Shown piece after piece: positions 12,561 through 63,316 of a DNA stretch of 64,000 nt. A program made the position numbers and the translations under genes. The first letter of the stretch is position 1. Each line of letters opens with the position of its first letter. Origin of the DNA: Escherichia coli (GTDB lineage Bacteria > Pseudomonadota > Gammaproteobacteria > Enterobacterales > Enterobacteriaceae); assembly GCF_045037415.1 (NCBI RefSeq), contig NZ_CP173438.1; one strand, 5' to 3'. Below the pieces are notes generated by a model. It searched no databases. It saw only the letters and a program-made list of their open reading frames with translations, and had not been told where the DNA came from.

Positions 12561-12879
12561 ATATTAAGTGTGCTTATACTCTTTTTCGAACTGGTGGCAT
12601 TTGTTTAAATGCTATTTAAACTGCTTTTTCAGAGTTCAACTTACTGAGTTCCGTGTCGACTAATGTGAGTAAGATCAATCGCATCCAACCTATGTTACTT
12701 GATGGCATCGATAACAATATTAATGAACATACAGATTCCGGGAAGGCTGGCTATGGGGGCAAATTATTCTCTTTCTGGAAACGGGTAAATAACAGTGACC
12801 ATTTGTCGAGAAGCTGATACTGAGCTGAGGGATACTGTATATGTCTGGACTGTAATTGGATGAATTCTATTCAGGGCGG

Positions 12880-13044: not shown

Positions 13045-13407
13045 TGGTGGAGCTGGCGGGAGTTGAACCCGCGTCCGAAATTCCTACATCCTCGGTACTA
13101 CATGCTTAGTCAGTCTTTACATTCGCTTGCCAGCTGCGGACGGACACGCCACTAACAAACTAGCCTGATTAAGTTTTAACGCTTCAACCCCAGGCAGGGC
13201 TTCCACGCGATCTCTTTTGGGTTTGACCTCTCTTGATCCCCGTCCTAAGAGCGGAGGCTAGGGAGAGAGGGCTCTAAGCAGGTTATTAAGCTGCTAAAGC
13301 GTAGTTTTCGTCGTTTGCGACTATTTTTTGCGGCTTTTTACGAGGCCAACCGCCCCTCGGCATGCACCTTGGGTTTCGCAAATCCCGTCGAATCCAGAAT
13401 CAGCCCC
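13045..13407 (-). ncRNA. ssrA: tmRNA (SsrA, 10Sa RNA), 363 nt
   Basis: Minus strand reads GGGGCUGAUUCUGGAUUCGACGGG ... CUCCACCA with the tRNA-like acceptor/T-arm; internal tag reading frame GCAAACGACGAAAACTACGCTTTAGCAGCTTAA (ANDENYALAA-stop) lies near 13283-13315. Confidence 0.97.
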
Positions 13408-31140: not shown

Positions 31141-31162
31141 AGTGTTGCCTTTTTGTTATCAA

Positions 31163-31192
31163 TAAAAAAGGCCCCCCGATTTGGGAGGCCTT
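31163..31192 (-). terminator. pheA attenuator terminator
   Basis: Minus strand reads GGCCUCCC-AAAUC-GGGGGGCC followed by UUUUUUAU, between pheL and the pheA start. Confidence 0.75.
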
Positions 31193-31238
31193 ATTGTTCG
31201 TCTTCGCATTCTGTTTCACACGACGAAACGCCTCCCAT

Positions 31239-31286
31239 TCAGGGGAAGGTAAAAAAGAATGCGAAGAAAAACGGTGTGTGTTTCAT
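31239..31286 (-). CDS. pheL: PheL, phe operon leader peptide (15 aa, 7 Phe codons)
   Basis: Minus strand ATGAAACACACACCGTTTTTCTTCGCATTCTTTTTTACCTTCCCCTGA encodes MKHTPFFFAFFFTFP-stop; K-12 as I recall it has Ile at position 4. Confidence 0.9.
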   Translation of the reverse strand: MKHTPFFFAFFFTFP

Positions 31287-31389
31287 GTTTGTTTCCTTAA
31301 GTGACTTTAGTACAGTACCCGTACTGTTTTCACGCTGTCAACAAAAAACGCGCCCGAAGGCGCGTTGGCGATACACTCAATATAAAGGA

Positions 31390-32738: not shown

Positions 32739-32872
32739 GACGTTTTGACTTTCCTCAAAATGTAATACGGGAGATTCTCTGTTCCTGCTCCCGGTTAAGA
32801 CCAGCTACAATAGCACACTATATTAAACGGCAAAGCCGTAAAACCCCAACGATAAACGAAGAAGCAGTATAT

Positions 32873-34581: not shown

Positions 34582-34643
34582 CCTAAAGAATCAAGACGAT
34601 CCGGTACGCGTGATTTTCTTTTCACATTAATCTGGTCAATAAC

Positions 34644-34672
34644 CTTGAATAATTGAGGGATGACCTCATTTA
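34644..34672 (+). promoter_or_regulatory. Sigma-32 heat-shock promoter of clpB
   Basis: CTTGAAT at 34644-34650 and ACCTCATTTA at 34663-34672 resemble the sigma-32 -35 and -10 elements, about 40 bp upstream of clpB. Confidence 0.6.
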
Positions 34673-34710
34673 ATCTCCAGTAGCAACTTTGATCCGTTAT
34701 GGGAGGAGTT

Positions 34711-37284
34711 ATGCGTCTGGATCGTCTTACTAATAAATTCCAGCTTGCTCTTGCCGATGCCCAATCACTTGCACTCGGGCACGACAACCAATTCATCGAA
34801 CCACTTCATTTAATGAGCGCCCTGCTGAATCAGGAAGGGGGTTCGGTTAGTCCTTTATTAACATCCGCTGGCATTAATGCTGGCCAGTTGCGCACAGATA
34901 TCAATCAGGCATTAAATCGTTTACCACAGGTTGAAGGTACTGGTGGTGATGTCCAGCCATCACAGGATCTGGTGCGCGTTCTTAATCTTTGCGACAAGCT
35001 GGCGCAAAAACGTGGTGATAACTTTATCTCGTCAGAACTGTTCGTTCTGGCGGCACTTGAGTCTCGCGGCACGCTGGCCGACATCCTGAAAGCAGCAGGG
35101 GCGACCACCGCCAACATTACTCAAGCGATTGAACAAATGCGTGGAGGTGAAAGCGTGAACGATCAAGGTGCTGAAGACCAACGTCAGGCTTTGAAAAAAT
35201 ATACCATCGACCTTACCGAACGAGCCGAACAAGGCAAACTCGATCCGGTGATTGGTCGTGATGAAGAAATTCGCCGTACCATTCAGGTGCTGCAACGTCG
35301 TACTAAAAATAACCCGGTATTGATTGGTGAACCCGGCGTCGGTAAAACTGCCATCGTTGAAGGTCTGGCGCAGCGTATTATCAACGGCGAAGTGCCCGAA
35401 GGGTTGAAAGGCCGCCGCGTACTGGCGCTGGATATGGGCGCGCTGGTGGCTGGGGCGAAATATCGCGGTGAGTTTGAAGAACGTTTAAAAGGCGTACTTA
35501 ACGATCTTGCTAAACAGGAAGGCAACGTCATCCTGTTTATCGACGAATTACATACCATGGTCGGCGCGGGTAAAGCCGATGGCGCAATGGACGCCGGAAA
35601 CATGCTGAAACCAGCGTTGGCGCGTGGTGAATTGCACTGCGTAGGTGCCACGACGCTTGACGAATATCGCCAGTACATCGAAAAAGATGCTGCGCTGGAA
35701 CGTCGTTTCCAGAAAGTGTTTGTTGCCGAGCCTTCTGTTGAAGATACCATTGCTATTCTGCGAGGCCTGAAAGAACGTTACGAGCTGCACCACCATGTGC
35801 AAATTACTGACCCGGCAATTGTTGCAGCAGCGACGTTGTCTCATCGCTACATTGCTGACCGTCAGCTGCCGGATAAAGCCATCGACCTGATCGATGAAGC
35901 AGCATCCAGCATTCGTATGCAGATTGACTCAAAACCAGAAGAACTCGACCGACTCGATCGCCGTATCATCCAGCTCAAACTGGAACAACAGGCGTTAATG
36001 AAAGAGTCTGATGAAGCCAGTAAAAAACGCCTGGATATGCTCAACGAAGAACTGAGCGACAAAGAACGTCAGTACTCCGAGTTAGAAGAAGAGTGGAAAG
36101 CAGAGAAAGCCTCGCTTTCTGGTACGCAGACCATTAAAGCGGAACTGGAACAGGCGAAAATTGCTATTGAACAGGCTCGCCGTGTGGGTGACCTGGCGCG
36201 GATGTCTGAACTGCAATACGGCAAAATCCCGGAACTGGAAAAGCAACTGGAAGCCGCAACGCAGCTCGAAGGCAAAACTATGCGTCTGTTGCGTAATAAA
36301 GTGACCGATGCCGAAATTGCTGAAGTGCTGGCGCGTTGGACGGGGATTCCGGTTTCTCGCATGATGGAAAGCGAGCGCGAAAAACTGCTGCGTATGGAGC
36401 AAGAACTGCACCATCGCGTTATTGGTCAGAACGAAGCGGTTGATGCGGTATCTAACGCTATTCGTCGTAGCCGTGCGGGGCTGGCGGATCCAAATCGCCC
36501 GATTGGTTCATTCCTGTTCCTCGGCCCAACCGGTGTGGGGAAAACTGAGCTTTGTAAGGCGCTAGCGAACTTTATGTTTGATAGCGACGAGGCGATGGTC
36601 CGTATCGATATGTCCGAGTTTATGGAGAAACACTCGGTGTCTCGTCTGGTTGGTGCGCCTCCGGGATATGTCGGTTATGAAGAAGGTGGCTACCTGACCG
36701 AAGCGGTGCGTCGTCGTCCGTATTCCGTCATTCTGCTGGATGAAGTGGAAAAAGCGCATCCGGATGTCTTCAACATTCTGTTGCAGGTACTGGATGATGG
36801 GCGTCTGACTGACGGGCAGGGGAGAACGGTCGACTTCCGTAATACGGTTGTCATTATGACCTCTAACCTCGGTTCCGATTTGATTCAGGAACGCTTCGGT
36901 GAACTGGATTATGCGCACATGAAAGAGCTGGTGCTCGGTGTGGTTAGCCATAACTTCCGTCCGGAATTCATTAACCGTATCGATGAAGTGGTGGTCTTCC
37001 ATCCGCTGGGTGAACAGCACATTGCGTCGATTGCGCAGATTCAGTTGAAACGTCTGTATAAACGTCTGGAAGAACGTGGTTATGAAATCCACATTTCTGA
37101 CGAGGCGCTGAAACTGCTGAGCGAGAACGGTTACGATCCGGTCTATGGCGCACGTCCTCTGAAACGTGCAATTCAGCAGCAGATTGAAAACCCGCTGGCA
37201 CAGCAAATACTGTCTGGTGAATTGGTTCCGGGTAAAGTGATTCGCCTGGAAGTTAATGAAGACCGGATTGTCGCCGTCCAGTAA
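34711..37284 (+). CDS. clpB: ClpB, AAA+ disaggregase chaperone (Hsp104 family)
   Basis: Start at [39 protein letters not shown]..., 857 aa, with two AAA+ modules (GEPGVGKT and GPTGVGKT Walker A motifs). Confidence 0.97.
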
Positions 37285-37727: not shown

Positions 37728-39269
<1,542 letters not shown>

Positions 39270-39354
39270 CCTTAAAGAAGCGTACTTTGCAGTGCTCACA
39301 CAGATTGTCTGATAGAAAGTGAAAAGCAAGGCGTCTTGCGAAGCAGACTGATAC

Positions 39355-39430
39355 GTCCCCTTCGTCTAGAGGCCCAGGACACCGCCCTTTCACGGCGGTA
39401 ACAGGGGTTCGAATCCCCTAGGGGACGCCA
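39355..39430 (+). tRNA. gltW: tRNA-Glu (UUC) in the 16S-23S spacer
   Basis: GTCCCCTTCGTCTAGAGGCCCAGGACACCGCCCTTTCACGGCGGTAACAGGGGTTCGAATCCCCTAGGGGACGCCA, 76 nt with encoded CCA. Confidence 0.95.
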
Positions 39431-39623
39431 CTTGCTGGTTTGTGAGTGAAAGTCACCTGCCTTAATATCTCAAAACTCATCTTCGGGTGATGTTTGAGAT
39501 ATTTGCTCTTTAAAAATCTGGATCAAGCTGAAAATTGAAACACTGAACAACGAGAGTTGTTCGTGAGTCTCTCAAATTTTCGCAACACGATGATGAATCG
39601 CAAGAAACATCTTCGGGTTGTGA

Positions 39624-42527
<2,904 letters not shown>

Positions 42528-42627
42528 ACAACGCCGAAGATGTTTTGGCGGAAGAGACATCGATAAGTAAGCTTGATAGCAGATTAAATCGACAGGTCAT
42601 AACGGGACGTGTTGATAAAACAGAATT

Positions 42628-42747
42628 TGCCTGGCGGCCGTAGCGCGGTGGTCCCACCTGACCCCATGCCGAACTCAGAAGTGAAACGCCGTAGCGCCGA
42701 TGGTAGTGTGGGGTCTCCCCATGCGAGAGTAGGGAACTGCCAGGCAT
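42628..42747 (+). rRNA. rrfG: 5S ribosomal RNA
   Basis: TGCCTGGCGGCCGTAGCGCGGTGGTCCCACCTGACCCCATGCCGAACTCAGAAG...GGGAACTGCCAGGCAT; 120 nt. Confidence 0.97.
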
Positions 42748-51373: not shown

Positions 51374-52063
51374 TTACTCACTCTCTGCCGGTAATACTGG
51401 CATCCAGTCAATCGGCGTCTCGCCACGTTGTTCCAGCCACTGATTTGCCAGCACAAAATGGTTGCAGCCAAAGAATCCACGATGCGCCGAAAGCGGCGAC
51501 GGATGCGGTGCTTTCAGTACATGATGGCGTTGCTTATCTATAATCGCCCCTTTCTTTTGCGCATGTGATCCCCACAACAAAAACACCACGCCTTCGCGAT
51601 GCTGATTTATGAGGCTGATGACTTTATCAGTAAACGTCTCCCAGCCGAGGCTGGCGTGGGAATGCGCCTGACCAGCGCGAACCGTCAAGACGGTATTGAG
51701 CAGCAGAACACCCTGACGCGCCCAGCTTTCAAGATAACCATGATTAGGGCGGGTGAAACCGGGAATAGTATTTTCCAGCTCTTTATACATATTCAGCAGT
51801 GACGGTGGTGTCGCAATGCCGGGGCGAACGGAAAATGCCAGACCATGCGCCTGTCCTGGTCCGTGATAAGGATCCTGACCGAGAATCACCACTTTAACGT
51901 CACCCAACTCCGTAAAGCGGAACGCGTTAAAGACATCTTTTTGTGGTGGATAGATAGTGACGCCGGACTGCCGCTCGCTGGCGACGGTCTGAAGGGTATT
52001 AAGAAAATAGGGTTGCTGCTTCTCTTCAGCCAGCACATCATGCCAGGTTAATTCGTTAGCCAT
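51374..52063 (-). CDS. ung: Ung, uracil-DNA glycosylase
   Basis: 229-aa [78 protein letters not shown]...; recognised as Ung. Confidence 0.97.
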
Positions 52064-52193
52064 CTCGCTCTCCTGCGAATCTTTAATCCGCCTAGCTTAA
52101 CTGCTTCTTTCTACAGAACAAAATCATGCTCATTTTATAGACAAAAAGACATGCAAAAAAATGTAAATTGGTAAAATTTCACATCTGCATAAG

Positions 52194-52260
52194 TTGATGT
52201 AAAACAATAAAATCCATTTGTGACCACACTTGATATGTGGTTTTTATTGATTTAAATCAA
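52194..52260 (+). promoter_or_regulatory. Two FNR-type sites in the grcA promoter
   Basis: TTGATTTAAATCAA at 52247-52260 is a perfect TTGAT-N4-ATCAA palindrome; TTGATGTAAAACAA at 52194-52207 has one mismatch; centres 53 bp apart. Confidence 0.75.
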
Positions 52261-52367
52261 AGAATCAAGGGTGTTTGAGGAGTATATATACACTCAAGCA
52301 ACAATGGTTTTACCAATTGGCCGCGACAGGCTGAACAAATCAAATAATTTTGCCGGGGAGGCATCAC

Positions 52368-52751
52368 ATGATTACAGGTATCCAGATTACTAAAGCCGCT
52401 AACGACGATCTGCTGAACTCTTTCTGGTTGCTGGACAGCGAAAAAGGCGAAGCGCGTTGCATCGTTGCGAAAGCAGGTTTTGCAGAAGACGAAGTGGTTG
52501 CAGTAAGCAAACTGGGTGACATTGAATACCGTGAAGTTCCAGTAGAAGTGAAACCAGAAGTTCGCGTTGAAGGTGGTCAACACCTGAACGTTAACGTTCT
52601 GCGTCGTGAAACTCTGGAAGATGCAGTTAAGCATCCGGAAAAATATCCGCAGCTGACCATCCGTGTATCCGGTTATGCAGTTCGCTTTAACTCTCTGACT
52701 CCGGAACAGCAGCGCGACGTTATCGCTCGTACCTTTACTGAAAGCCTGTAA
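52368..52751 (+). CDS. grcA: GrcA (YfiD), glycyl-radical autonomous cofactor
   Basis: Start at [46 protein letters not shown]..., 127 aa, with the C-terminal glycyl-radical motif RVSGYAV. Confidence 0.95.
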
Positions 52752-52806
52752 GGCTTAAGTAGCAAGTTACTAAGCGGAAGAGGGCGACCTCTTCCGCTTT
52801 TTTTCG

Positions 52807-59887: not shown

Positions 59888-60843
59888 TGAAGCAACTTTG
59901 GTTTGCCATGTCATTAGTGACAGGTAGCCTGTTATTCTCTGCTAACGCCTTGGCCACTCCCGCGTCCGGGGCGTTATTACAGCAGATGAACCTGGCCAGT
60001 CAGTCACTGAATTACGAGCTGTCATTTATCAGCATCAATAAACAGGGTGTTGAGTCTCTGCGTTATCGACATGCACGCCTCGATAACCGTCCTCTTGCAC
60101 AATTGTTGCAAATGGATGGCCCGCGCCGGGAAGTGGTACAGCGCGGCAATGAAATCAGCTATTTTGAACCGGGACTTGAACCGTTCACGCTTAATGGCGA
60201 TTACATTGTTGATTCTCTGCCATCGCTCATCTATACCGATTTCAAACGCCTTTCTCCTTACTACGACTTTATCTCTGTCGGGCGCACGCGTATTGCTGAT
60301 CGTCTTTGCGAAGTCATTCGTGTGGTTGCCCGAGATGGTACACGCTACAGCTACATCGTGTGGATGGACACCGAATCGAAATTACCGATGCGGGTTGATC
60401 TCCTTGATCGCGATGGTGAAACGCTGGAACAATTTCGCGTGATTGCTTTTAACGTCAATCAGGATATCGGCAGCAGTATGCAGACGCTGGCGAAGGCAAA
60501 TTTGCCGCCGTTGCTTTCTGTTCCTGTTGGTGAAAAAGCTAAATTCAGCTGGACGCCAACCTGGCTGCCACAGGGTTTTAGCGAAGTTTCCAGTAGTCGA
60601 CGTCCGCTACCGACGATGGACAACATGCCTATCGAATCACGTCTCTATTCCGACGGATTATTCAGCTTCTCGGTAAACGTTAACCGCGCTACGCCATCGA
60701 GCACCGATCAGATGTTGCGCACCGGACGCAGAACCGTCAGTACAAGCGTACGTGATAACGCCGAAATCACCATTGTTGGTGAACTGCCGCCGCAAACGGC
60801 GAAACGCATTGCCGAGAATATTAAGTTCGGGACAGCGCAATGA
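59887..60843 (+). CDS. rseB: RseB, periplasmic regulator of sigma-E
   Basis: 318-aa ORF MKQLWFAMSLVTGSLLFSANALATPASGALLQQMNLA... with a signal peptide. Confidence 0.95.
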   Translation: MKQLWFAMSLVTGSLLFSANALATPASGALLQQMNLASQSLNYELSFISINKQGVESLRYRHARLDNRPLAQLLQMDGPRREVVQRGNEISYFEPGLEPFTLNGDYIVDSLPSLIYTDFKRLSPYYDFISVGRTRIADRLCEVIRVVARDGTRYSYIVWMDTESKLPMRVDLLDRDGETLEQFRVIAFNVNQDIGSSMQTLAKANLPPLLSVPVGEKAKFSWTPTWLPQGFSEVSSSRRPLPTMDNMPIESRLYSDGLFSFSVNVNRATPSSTDQMLRTGRRTVSTSVRDNAEITIVGELPPQTAKRIAENIKFGTAQ

Positions 60844-61319
60844 TCAAAGAGTGGGCTACCGTCGTCTCCTGGGAAAACGGGCAGGCGCTGGTCAGTTGTG
60901 ATGTTAAAGCCTCATGCAGCAGCTGCGCTTCACGCGCCGGTTGCGGTAGCCGTGTGTTGAATAAACTTGGCCCGCAAACCACGCATACCATTGTCGTACC
61001 CTGTGATGAGCCGCTAGTGCCGGGGCAAAAAGTGGAATTGGGGATCGCCGAAGGCAGCCTTCTTAGCTCCGCATTACTGGTTTATATGTCGCCGCTGGTG
61101 GGATTATTCCTCATCGCTTCGCTATTTCAGCTACTCTTTGCTTCTGACGTCGCAGCATTATGTGGTGCGATCCTCGGCGGTATTGGTGGGTTCCTGATTG
61201 CGCGCGGCTATTCGCGTAAGTTTGCTGCCCGGGCAGAATGGCAACCGATCATCTTAAGCGTGGCATTGCCGCCTGGCCTTGTGCGATTTGAAACATCTTC
61301 GGAAGACGCGAGCCAGTGA
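60840..61319 (+). CDS. rseC: RseC, membrane protein of the rpoE operon
   Basis: 159-aa ORF MIKEWATVVSWENGQALVSCDVKASCSSCASRAGCGSRVL...; its start overlaps the rseB stop by 4 nt. Confidence 0.9.
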   Translation: MIKEWATVVSWENGQALVSCDVKASCSSCASRAGCGSRVLNKLGPQTTHTIVVPCDEPLVPGQKVELGIAEGSLLSSALLVYMSPLVGLFLIASLFQLLFASDVAALCGAILGGIGGFLIARGYSRKFAARAEWQPIILSVALPPGLVRFETSSEDASQ

Positions 61320-61516
61320 TTTCACTGGCTTTGTTGCATTTTGCATAACAAATGCGAGGACGTTTCCATATACCACAATCCATACGGTATGAACATTTCC
61401 TCGCCTCAATGTTGTAGTGTAGAATGCGGCGTTTCTATTAATACAGACGTTAAGCTCAGAACAGCGACTTCTAAAAGCCTGGTTAACCGGGCATTAAGGC
61501 ACAATAATCATACTTT

Positions 61517-63316
61517 ATGAAGAATATACGTAACTTTTCGATCATAGCTCACATTGACCACGGTAAATCGACGCTGTCTGACCGTATTATCCAGATCTGC
61601 GGTGGCCTGTCTGACCGTGAAATGGAGGCGCAGGTTCTCGATTCCATGGATCTTGAGCGTGAGCGTGGCATTACCATCAAAGCGCAAAGCGTGACGCTGG
61701 ACTACAAAGCGTCTGACGGCGAAACCTATCAGCTTAACTTTATCGACACCCCGGGCCACGTAGACTTCTCCTATGAAGTTTCTCGTTCGCTGGCTGCCTG
61801 TGAAGGTGCATTGCTGGTGGTCGACGCCGGGCAGGGCGTAGAAGCGCAAACCCTGGCAAACTGCTACACCGCCATGGAAATGGATCTCGAAGTGGTGCCG
61901 GTACTGAACAAGATTGACCTGCCGGCAGCCGATCCTGAACGCGTGGCGGAAGAAATTGAAGATATCGTCGGCATCGACGCCACCGACGCGGTGCGCTGTT
62001 CAGCGAAAACCGGCGTTGGCGTGCAAGACGTTCTCGAACGCTTGGTGCGCGACATTCCGCCGCCGGAAGGCGATCCGGAAGGCCCATTGCAGGCGCTGAT
62101 TATCGACTCCTGGTTCGACAACTACCTGGGCGTTGTTTCACTTATCCGTATTAAAAACGGCACCCTGCGTAAGGGCGACAAAGTGAAAGTCATGAGCACC
62201 GAGCAGACCTATAACGCCGATCGTCTGGGCATCTTCACGCCGAAGCAGATTGACCGCACTGAACTGAAATGTGGCGAAGTAGGCTGGCTGGTATGTGCGA
62301 TTAAAGATATCCACGGCGCTCCAGTAGGCGATACCTTAACACTGGCGCGTAATCCGGCAGAAAAGGCGCTGCCTGGCTTTAAGAAAGTCAAACCTCAGGT
62401 ATATGCTGGTCTGTTCCCGGTAAGTTCCGACGACTATGAAGCCTTCCGTGACGCGCTGGGTAAACTCAGCCTGAACGATGCCTCACTGTTCTATGAGCCG
62501 GAAAGCTCCAGCGCGTTGGGCTTTGGTTTCCGCTGCGGCTTCCTTGGCCTGCTGCACATGGAGATCATCCAGGAACGTCTGGAACGTGAATACGATCTGG
62601 ATCTGATCACCACTGCGCCGACTGTAGTGTATGAAGTTGAAACCACGTCAAGAGAAGTTATCTACGTCGACAGCCCATCCAAGCTGCCAGCGGTAAATAA
62701 CATTTACGAACTGCGCGAGCCGATTGCAGAGTGTCACATGCTGCTGCCGCAGGCATATCTCGGCAACGTTATTACGCTGTGCGTAGAAAAACGCGGCGTG
62801 CAGACCAATATGGTTTACCACGGTAATCAGGTGGCGCTGACGTACGAGATCCCGATGGCGGAAGTGGTGCTCGACTTCTTCGATCGCCTGAAATCTACCT
62901 CGCGTGGTTATGCGTCTCTGGATTACAACTTCAAACGCTTCCAGGCGTCCGACATGGTACGTGTAGACGTATTAATCAACGGTGAACGTGTTGATGCATT
63001 GGCGCTGATCACCCACCGTGGTAATTCGCAAAACCGCGGTCGCGAGCTGGTGGAGAAGATGAAAGATCTGATCCCACGCCAGCAGTTTGATATCGCCATT
63101 CAGGCAGCGATTGGTACGCACATCATTGCGCGCTCCACCGTGAAACAGCTGCGTAAAAACGTACTGGCTAAATGTTATGGCGGCGATATCAGCCGTAAGA
63201 AAAAGCTGCTGCAGAAGCAGAAAGAAGGTAAGAAACGCATGAAGCAGATCGGTAACGTCGAGCTGCCGCAGGAAGCGTTCCTCGCCATTCTGCACGTCGG
63301 CAAAGACAACAAATAA
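61517..63316 (+). CDS. lepA: LepA (EF4), translational GTPase
   Basis: 599-aa [60 protein letters not shown]... with GTPase motifs. Confidence 0.97.

Follow-up and report, generated by a model that had tools for sequence, protein, structure and literature searches.

The window analysed in this work, which is the whole stretch of 64,000 nucleotides, is derived from the Escherichia coli chromosome, and the tandem FNR boxes under study lie inside its 304-bp intergenic region (52064-52367) between ung on the minus strand and grcA on the plus strand. The grcA (yfiD) coding sequence occupies 52368-52751 (+), with its ATG at 52368, and encodes the 127-aa autonomous glycyl radical cofactor. This open reading frame carried the Pfam Gly_radical domain (E = 3.8e-19) and corresponds to grcA in the RefSeq annotation of E. 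coli SK1144, and the gene downstream of the boxes was accordingly identified as the one encoding GrcA. The ung-grcA intergenic sequence of SK1144 was 100% identical to that of the window over 305 bp (52064-52368), a length that comprises the intergenic region and the first base of grcA. A Shine-Dalgarno sequence, GGAGG (52357-52361, +), precedes the ATG and was kept across genera in a twelve-genus alignment (A2), and a terminator scan placed a strong intrinsic terminator with a 12-bp stem followed by a T-run at about 52772-52805 (+), downstream of the gene. The divergent neighbor ung (51374-52063, −), assigned from its open reading frame and annotation, provides context and lies outside the regulatory unit. 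Of 5426 complete E. coli genomes, 5425 contained the intergenic region. An Rfam search of the grcA leader matched no known RNA family; elsewhere in the window, it matched tmRNA (13045-13407, −), the pheL leader (31162-31287, −), RyfD (34592-34730, +), a complete rrn operon with tRNA and StyR-44 (37728-42745, +), and AsrC, antisense to rseC (60804-61635, −).

The proximal FNR box (FNR I), TTGATTTAAATCAA, is located at 52247-52260 (+); it is perfectly palindromic and follows the consensus TTGAT-N4-ATCAA at every position. The distal box (FNR II), TTGATGTAAAACAA, is located at 52194-52207 (+) and carries one mismatch to the same consensus, an A for T at position 11. The box centers, 52253.5 and 52200.5, are 53 bp apart. 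Sites within one mismatch of the FNR consensus numbered eight in the window. The expected number was 2.45 ± 1.47, and eight was not attained in any of 100 shuffles. Both boxes were then scored with an FNR matrix of symmetrized log-odds, built from 61 ChIP-bound sites of Myers 2013 (Table S6), from which the two yfiD sites had been excluded to avoid circularity. The proximal box scored 20.99 of a possible 21.7 bits and ranked first of the 63,987 positions in the window, while the weaker distal box scored 15.84 bits and ranked second. When 2 Mb of sequence were drawn from a Markov-1 null, scores equal to or above that of the distal box arose at 3.5e-6 per position, or about 0.22 per 64 kb, and the score of the proximal box was never reached. 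CRP-type half-sites, TGTGA-N6-TCACA, were not found at either box; both read TTGAT/ATCAA with a 4-bp spacer, the FNR-specific form. The next-best matches to the FNR matrix in the window were located at 32745-32758 (14.0 bits), 1134-1147 (13.9 bits), and 12665-12678 (13.6 bits). The first of these shares its sequence, on the opposite strand, with a predicted K-12 site labeled rluD/bamD (TTGAGGAAAGTCAA) that is not ChIP-bound in K-12, and the last lies approximately 380 bp from the tmRNA gene (ssrA); K-12 FNR ChIP peaks labeled ssrA and intA appear in Myers 2013.

Both 14-mers were base-for-base identical to the boxes of K-12 yfiD. In the PatSer scoring of Myers 2013, the K-12 proximal box scores 17.25, the highest value of all ChIP-bound predicted sites, and the distal box 13.87; both lie above the PatSer cut-off of ln p = -10.75, and both are marked at an FNR ChIP-seq peak, with coordinates 53 nt apart. 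K-12 coordinates (v2) were converted to window positions (w) by v2 = 2766839 − w, and the K-12 FNR ChIP-seq peak (2714605-2714607) mapped to 52232-52234, between the boxes. A single peak at this place does not prove the occupancy of both boxes, and for the motif closest to the center of the FNR peak, Table S5 of Myers 2013 has an ln p of only -5.75. In K-12, yfiD is activated by FNR, and its mRNA is about 9-fold higher anaerobically (Myers 2013, Table S12). At the published yfiD promoter, FNR is reported to activate from -40.5 and to down-regulate from -93.5 (Green 1998; Marshall 2001), and the down-regulation from -93.5 stands in the title of Green 1998. According to the citing literature, an FNR dimer bound upstream suppresses yfiD activation; mutation or deletion of the upstream box is described there as strengthening anaerobic activity, and the wild-type promoter as being most active under microaerobic conditions.

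These data bear on most of what the sequence-only reading had proposed. Its two FNR-type boxes at 52247-52260 and 52194-52207, 53 bp apart, were both present, and its suggestion that they be scored with a position weight matrix was borne out, since both boxes passed, with PatSer values of 17.25 and 13.87 in K-12 and the first two ranks in our independent scan. The gene, the factor, and the spacing that it named, grcA, FNR, and 53 bp, all match the published yfiD promoter, with boxes identical to those of K-12. Similarly, the roles that it assigned, activation from the proximal site and modulation from the distal one, agree with the published accounts, which give -40.5 as activating and -93.5 as down-regulating. 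The ung-grcA intergenic region is AT-rich and the FNR and CRP motifs are related, so it could be argued that the boxes are chance AT-rich palindromes, or CRP rather than FNR sites. Against this stand the first and second ranks of the boxes among the 63,987 positions, which far exceed the null expectation; the half-sites, which are TTGAT and not the TGTGA of CRP; the K-12 data, with a ChIP peak for FNR and expression that depends on it; and the invariance of the half-sites in about 60 species while the spacer drifts. The probability of a chance or CRP origin is close to nil, and this reading was effectively refuted by the statistics, the TTGAT half-sites, and the ChIP data. The locus is almost certainly the natural E. 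coli grcA (yfiD) promoter, an FNR-dependent class II promoter with a second, upstream FNR site.

The transcription start was transferred from K-12. Table S4 of Park 2013 lists an ArcA site at K-12 (U00096.2) 2714524-2714555 and gives it as -10/+22 of the yfiD start. The reverse complement of this K-12 32-mer was identical to window 52284-52315, and the identity places +1 at window 52294 (+). The leader from this start to the grcA ATG would be 74 nt long. Counted from the transferred start, the center of the distal box falls at -93.5 and that of the proximal box at -40.5, the position of class II activation; the latter value agrees with Myers 2013, in which the yfiD FNR site is tabulated at -40.5, and the former with the title of Green 1998. 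The sequence-only reading had asked that a mapped start leave the proximal site near -40.5, and the start transferred from K-12 does so. A -10 element, TATATA, lies at 52283-52288 (+), at a distance from the proximal box that is fixed across Enterobacterales: TATAnn was found at this distance in 63 of 65 Enterobacterales loci, with 1.8-1.9 bits per base. The K-12 σ70 ChIP-seq peak at 2714546 maps to window 52293. A σ70 consensus scan found no complete promoter upstream of grcA. None is expected at a class II activator-dependent promoter, because its -35 region is taken up by the activator site, and the proximal box indeed spans -47 to -34. The region therefore has the form of a class II FNR-dependent promoter, with an activator site over -35, a recognizable -10, and no consensus -35.

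Two further entries in the tables of Myers 2013 concern this region. The σ70 ChIP-seq peak at the yfiD/ung promoter is labeled aerobic-preferring (323 versus 224; Table S2), which contrasts with the anaerobic rise of yfiD mRNA; some rows of the table look inconsistent, and we give this label little weight. In addition, both FNR boxes overlap IHF ChIP-chip enrichment (Table S6), and inspection of the boxes by eye revealed no clear IHF consensus.

Just downstream of the start, an operator region for ArcA and PdhR was found. The ArcA binding region reported for K-12, from -10 to +22, corresponds to 52284-52315 (+), the 32-mer identical to that of Park 2013, and the ArcA ChIP peaks of K-12 correspond to 52302 and 52269 in the window. 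A putative PdhR-type operator palindrome, AATGGTTTTACCAAT, occupies 52303-52317 (+), that is, +10 to +24, and differs at one position from ATTGGT-N3-ACCAAT; it was the only match to this motif with at most one mismatch in the window. A PdhR-type box with at most two mismatches was located 56.5-57.5 bp from the FNR center in 49 of 65 Enterobacterales loci. PdhR repression of yfiD and involvement of ArcA have both been reported in the literature. The sources disagree on the effect of ArcA: Wyborn 2002, as summarized by Park 2013, has ArcA activating yfiD by disrupting FNR binding, whereas Table S7 of Park 2013 gives the effect at yfiD as negative ("-"). The literature describes yfiD as controlled by FNR, ArcA, and PdhR and as induced by pyruvate or low pH, and the pH signal is not assigned to FNR. 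The sequence-only reading had concluded from the preservation of both boxes that the anaerobic and acid-stress induction logic is intact. This held in part: all mapped elements from -100 to the ATG equal those of K-12, but an acid-stress logic does not follow from FNR boxes.

Next, sequence variation was examined within E. coli, in which the identity of the ung-grcA intergenic region ranged from 93.8% to 100% across the genome collection. Five diverged alleles were aligned, those of the window, K-12, an O157:H7 strain, AR_0061, and N96, the last being the weakest-ranked match. Both FNR boxes were invariant in all five, down to the most diverged allele at 93.8% identity, and no indels occurred, an invariance that rests on best, intermediate, and weakest-ranked alleles out of 5425 genomes. 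The window and K-12 differed at 14 of the 304 intergenic positions, none of them in a mapped element, and were fully identical from -29 to the ATG. The differences lay in the spacers (-30, -59, -67, and -73) and upstream of the distal box (-108 and -110, with single changes at -157 and -210), as well as in a hypervariable patch at 52143-52151 (-151 to -143), where the window reads AAAAAGACA and K-12 TTAAACGAG, with 6 of 9 bases different. N96 carries a third version of this patch, which belongs to an A-rich block with moderate conservation between genera. A terminator-like inverted repeat, ACCACA-N7-TGTGGT followed by a T-run, was also noticed between the boxes (52222-52242). It was polymorphic in E. 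coli and unconserved across genera, and judging from these comparisons it is probably a chance feature.

Conservation was then examined across species. One genome was taken per species, giving 80 grcA loci, and the 400 bp upstream of each was scored with the FNR matrix; the 65 non-Pasteurellaceae loci made up the Enterobacterales set, and a pair was defined as the best site plus an upstream partner of at least 9 bits. A box pair was found in 60 of the 65 Enterobacterales loci, with a spacing of 53 bp in 54 loci and 52 bp in 6; the species are related, and these and the other conservation counts are not counts of independent events. The pairs span Escherichia, Citrobacter, Enterobacter, Klebsiella, Kosakonia, Hafnia, and Edwardsiella, as well as Yersinia, Serratia, Dickeya, Pectobacterium, Brenneria, Rahnella, and Erwinia. 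In an anchored information profile and in the gapped alignment A2 of twelve genera, conserved footprints stood out at the distal box with its immediate flanks, the proximal box, the TATA core, the GGTTTTACC core, and the Shine-Dalgarno sequence. The spacer between the FNR boxes was unconserved in sequence and fixed in length. The proximal half-sites were invariant in all 60 species with a pair. In every one of the 60 pairs, the distal box was weaker than the proximal one, with mean scores of 14.7 and 19.6 bits, respectively. At position 11, 53 of the 60 distal boxes had the nonconsensus A, and all 60 proximal boxes had T.

It could be proposed that the distal box mainly serves the divergent ung promoter and has no modulating role at grcA. 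With 137.5 bp between it and the ung ATG downstream, the box is plausibly close enough for an activator to act, and ung was divergently adjacent in 65 of 65 Enterobacterales loci, so that synteny cannot separate ung from grcA as its target. Spacing, however, does distinguish them: across species, the distance from the distal box to the ung ATG varied from 112.5 to 299.5 bp (sd 29), whereas that to the proximal box was fixed at 52-53 bp. Moreover, the tables of FNR-dependent and O2-dependent operons in Myers 2013 do not contain ung (b2580), and the literature on yfiD describes changes in yfiD promoter activity upon mutation or deletion of the distal box. A main role of the distal box at ung is therefore highly improbable.

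Comparison with known systems places the promoter in the window next to that of K-12 yfiD (Green 1998; Marshall 2001; Wyborn 2002; Myers 2013). The two share the locus, the gene, both 14-mers, and the 53-bp spacing, together with the -10 element, the ArcA 32-mer, and the PdhR-type palindrome, and the K-12 allele differs from the window at the 14 intergenic positions given above, outside the mapped elements. Tandem CRP promoters (Lee and Busby 2012, mBio) likewise carry two dimers of the CRP/FNR family, with an upstream effect that depends on position. On this model, the upstream FNR box might be a synergistic second activator contact, as at many tandem CRP promoters, and not an attenuator. An upstream CRP site at -93.5 does raise activity, through AR1-αCTD contacts, and repression is seen only at -122.5 (Lee and Busby 2012). 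At yfiD, in contrast, upstream FNR represses, and αCTD is said not to be involved (Lee and Busby 2012). The literature on FNR at yfiD, so far as its titles and summaries extend, consistently gives suppression by the upstream dimer, including in the title of Green 1998, and describes a promoter that is stronger under anaerobiosis once the upstream box has been mutated or deleted. We regard a synergistic role of the upstream box as extremely improbable, and attenuation from -93.5 remains the reading adopted here.

Engineered melR-based promoters with two consensus FNR sites, built by Barnard, Green, and Busby in 2003, reportedly behave in the same sense: an upstream FNR dimer near -85 or -95 is said to repress a class II FNR promoter sharply. 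The repressing upstream position in these synthetic promoters matches the natural -93.5 of grcA. Unlike them, with their two consensus sites, the natural grcA promoter keeps a weaker upstream site. The E. coli ndh promoter also has two FNR sites, approximately 44 bp apart and upstream; both of them are repressing sites, and the class II activating position is occupied by neither. It differs from that of grcA, where the proximal site activates. In the literature, ndh is listed as FNR(-) and PdhR(-).

By analogy with K-12, the promoter would operate as follows. As O2 falls, [4Fe-4S]-FNR dimers would first fill the strong palindromic box at -40.5, and FNR bound there would bring in RNA polymerase at a promoter with a TATATA -10 but no usable -35. 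Under full anaerobiosis, with more active FNR, the weaker box at -93.5 would be filled too, and the upstream dimer would damp transcription; grcA output would then peak under microaerobic conditions. Redox and pyruvate inputs would be added by ArcA and by PdhR, a repressor that senses pyruvate, through an operator region from +10 to +24. In this scheme, we infer that the difference in affinity sets the order of filling, in which the strong proximal box is occupied first and the weak distal box follows once active FNR has risen further. The strong/weak asymmetry in 60 of 60 pairs is consistent with distal down-regulation and a microaerobic maximum. Occupancy, activation, down-regulation, and the microaerobic maximum are all carried over from the K-12 literature, and the window strain, with its identical elements, would be expected to behave in the same way.

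The tandem FNR promoter of grcA is thus already known, intact, and ordinary. The strain carries a well-characterized promoter that tunes GrcA, the repair protein of pyruvate formate-lyase, to microaerobic conditions, and the promoter is also of practical use as an oxygen-responsive part in metabolic engineering. What we add is modest, namely that the 53-bp spacing and the asymmetry of a strong proximal and a weak distal box extend across Enterobacterales, from Escherichia to Yersinia, Serratia, Dickeya, and Erwinia. As a pattern in compared sequences, this Enterobacterales-wide asymmetry and spacing supports the occupancy-order model proposed for K-12. Furthermore, the position-11 defect is kept within a conserved block, beside a freely drifting spacer, which points to selection for a weaker upstream site. 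With slightly more doubt than belief, we suggest a broader hypothesis: the distal box may be kept suboptimal by selection, such that the affinity gap, perhaps together with an overlapping ArcA site, sets the O2 threshold at which activation gives way to attenuation, and Pasteurellaceae may have built anew a two-box logic of related kind, with a spacing of 42-44 bp.

The Pasteurellaceae loci were inspected separately. In eight of them (L049, L052, L056, L057, L059, L064, L070, and L077), the region about 85-140 bp before the grcA ATG, which stands at position 1201 of the extracted loci, contained two FNR-like boxes with a spacing of 42-44 bp in place of 53 bp. The same eight loci shared a conserved extended -10-like element, TGATAAAAT, approximately 35-36 bp downstream of the center of the lower box, and a 13-bp palindrome, TTGAA-N3-(A/T)TCAA, between the lower box and this element. 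The arrangement of these motifs suggests that the Pasteurellaceae grcA promoter is wired differently. Among the other Pasteurellaceae loci, one had no box above the score cut-off, one had boxes 71 bp apart, and five had the upstream box only.
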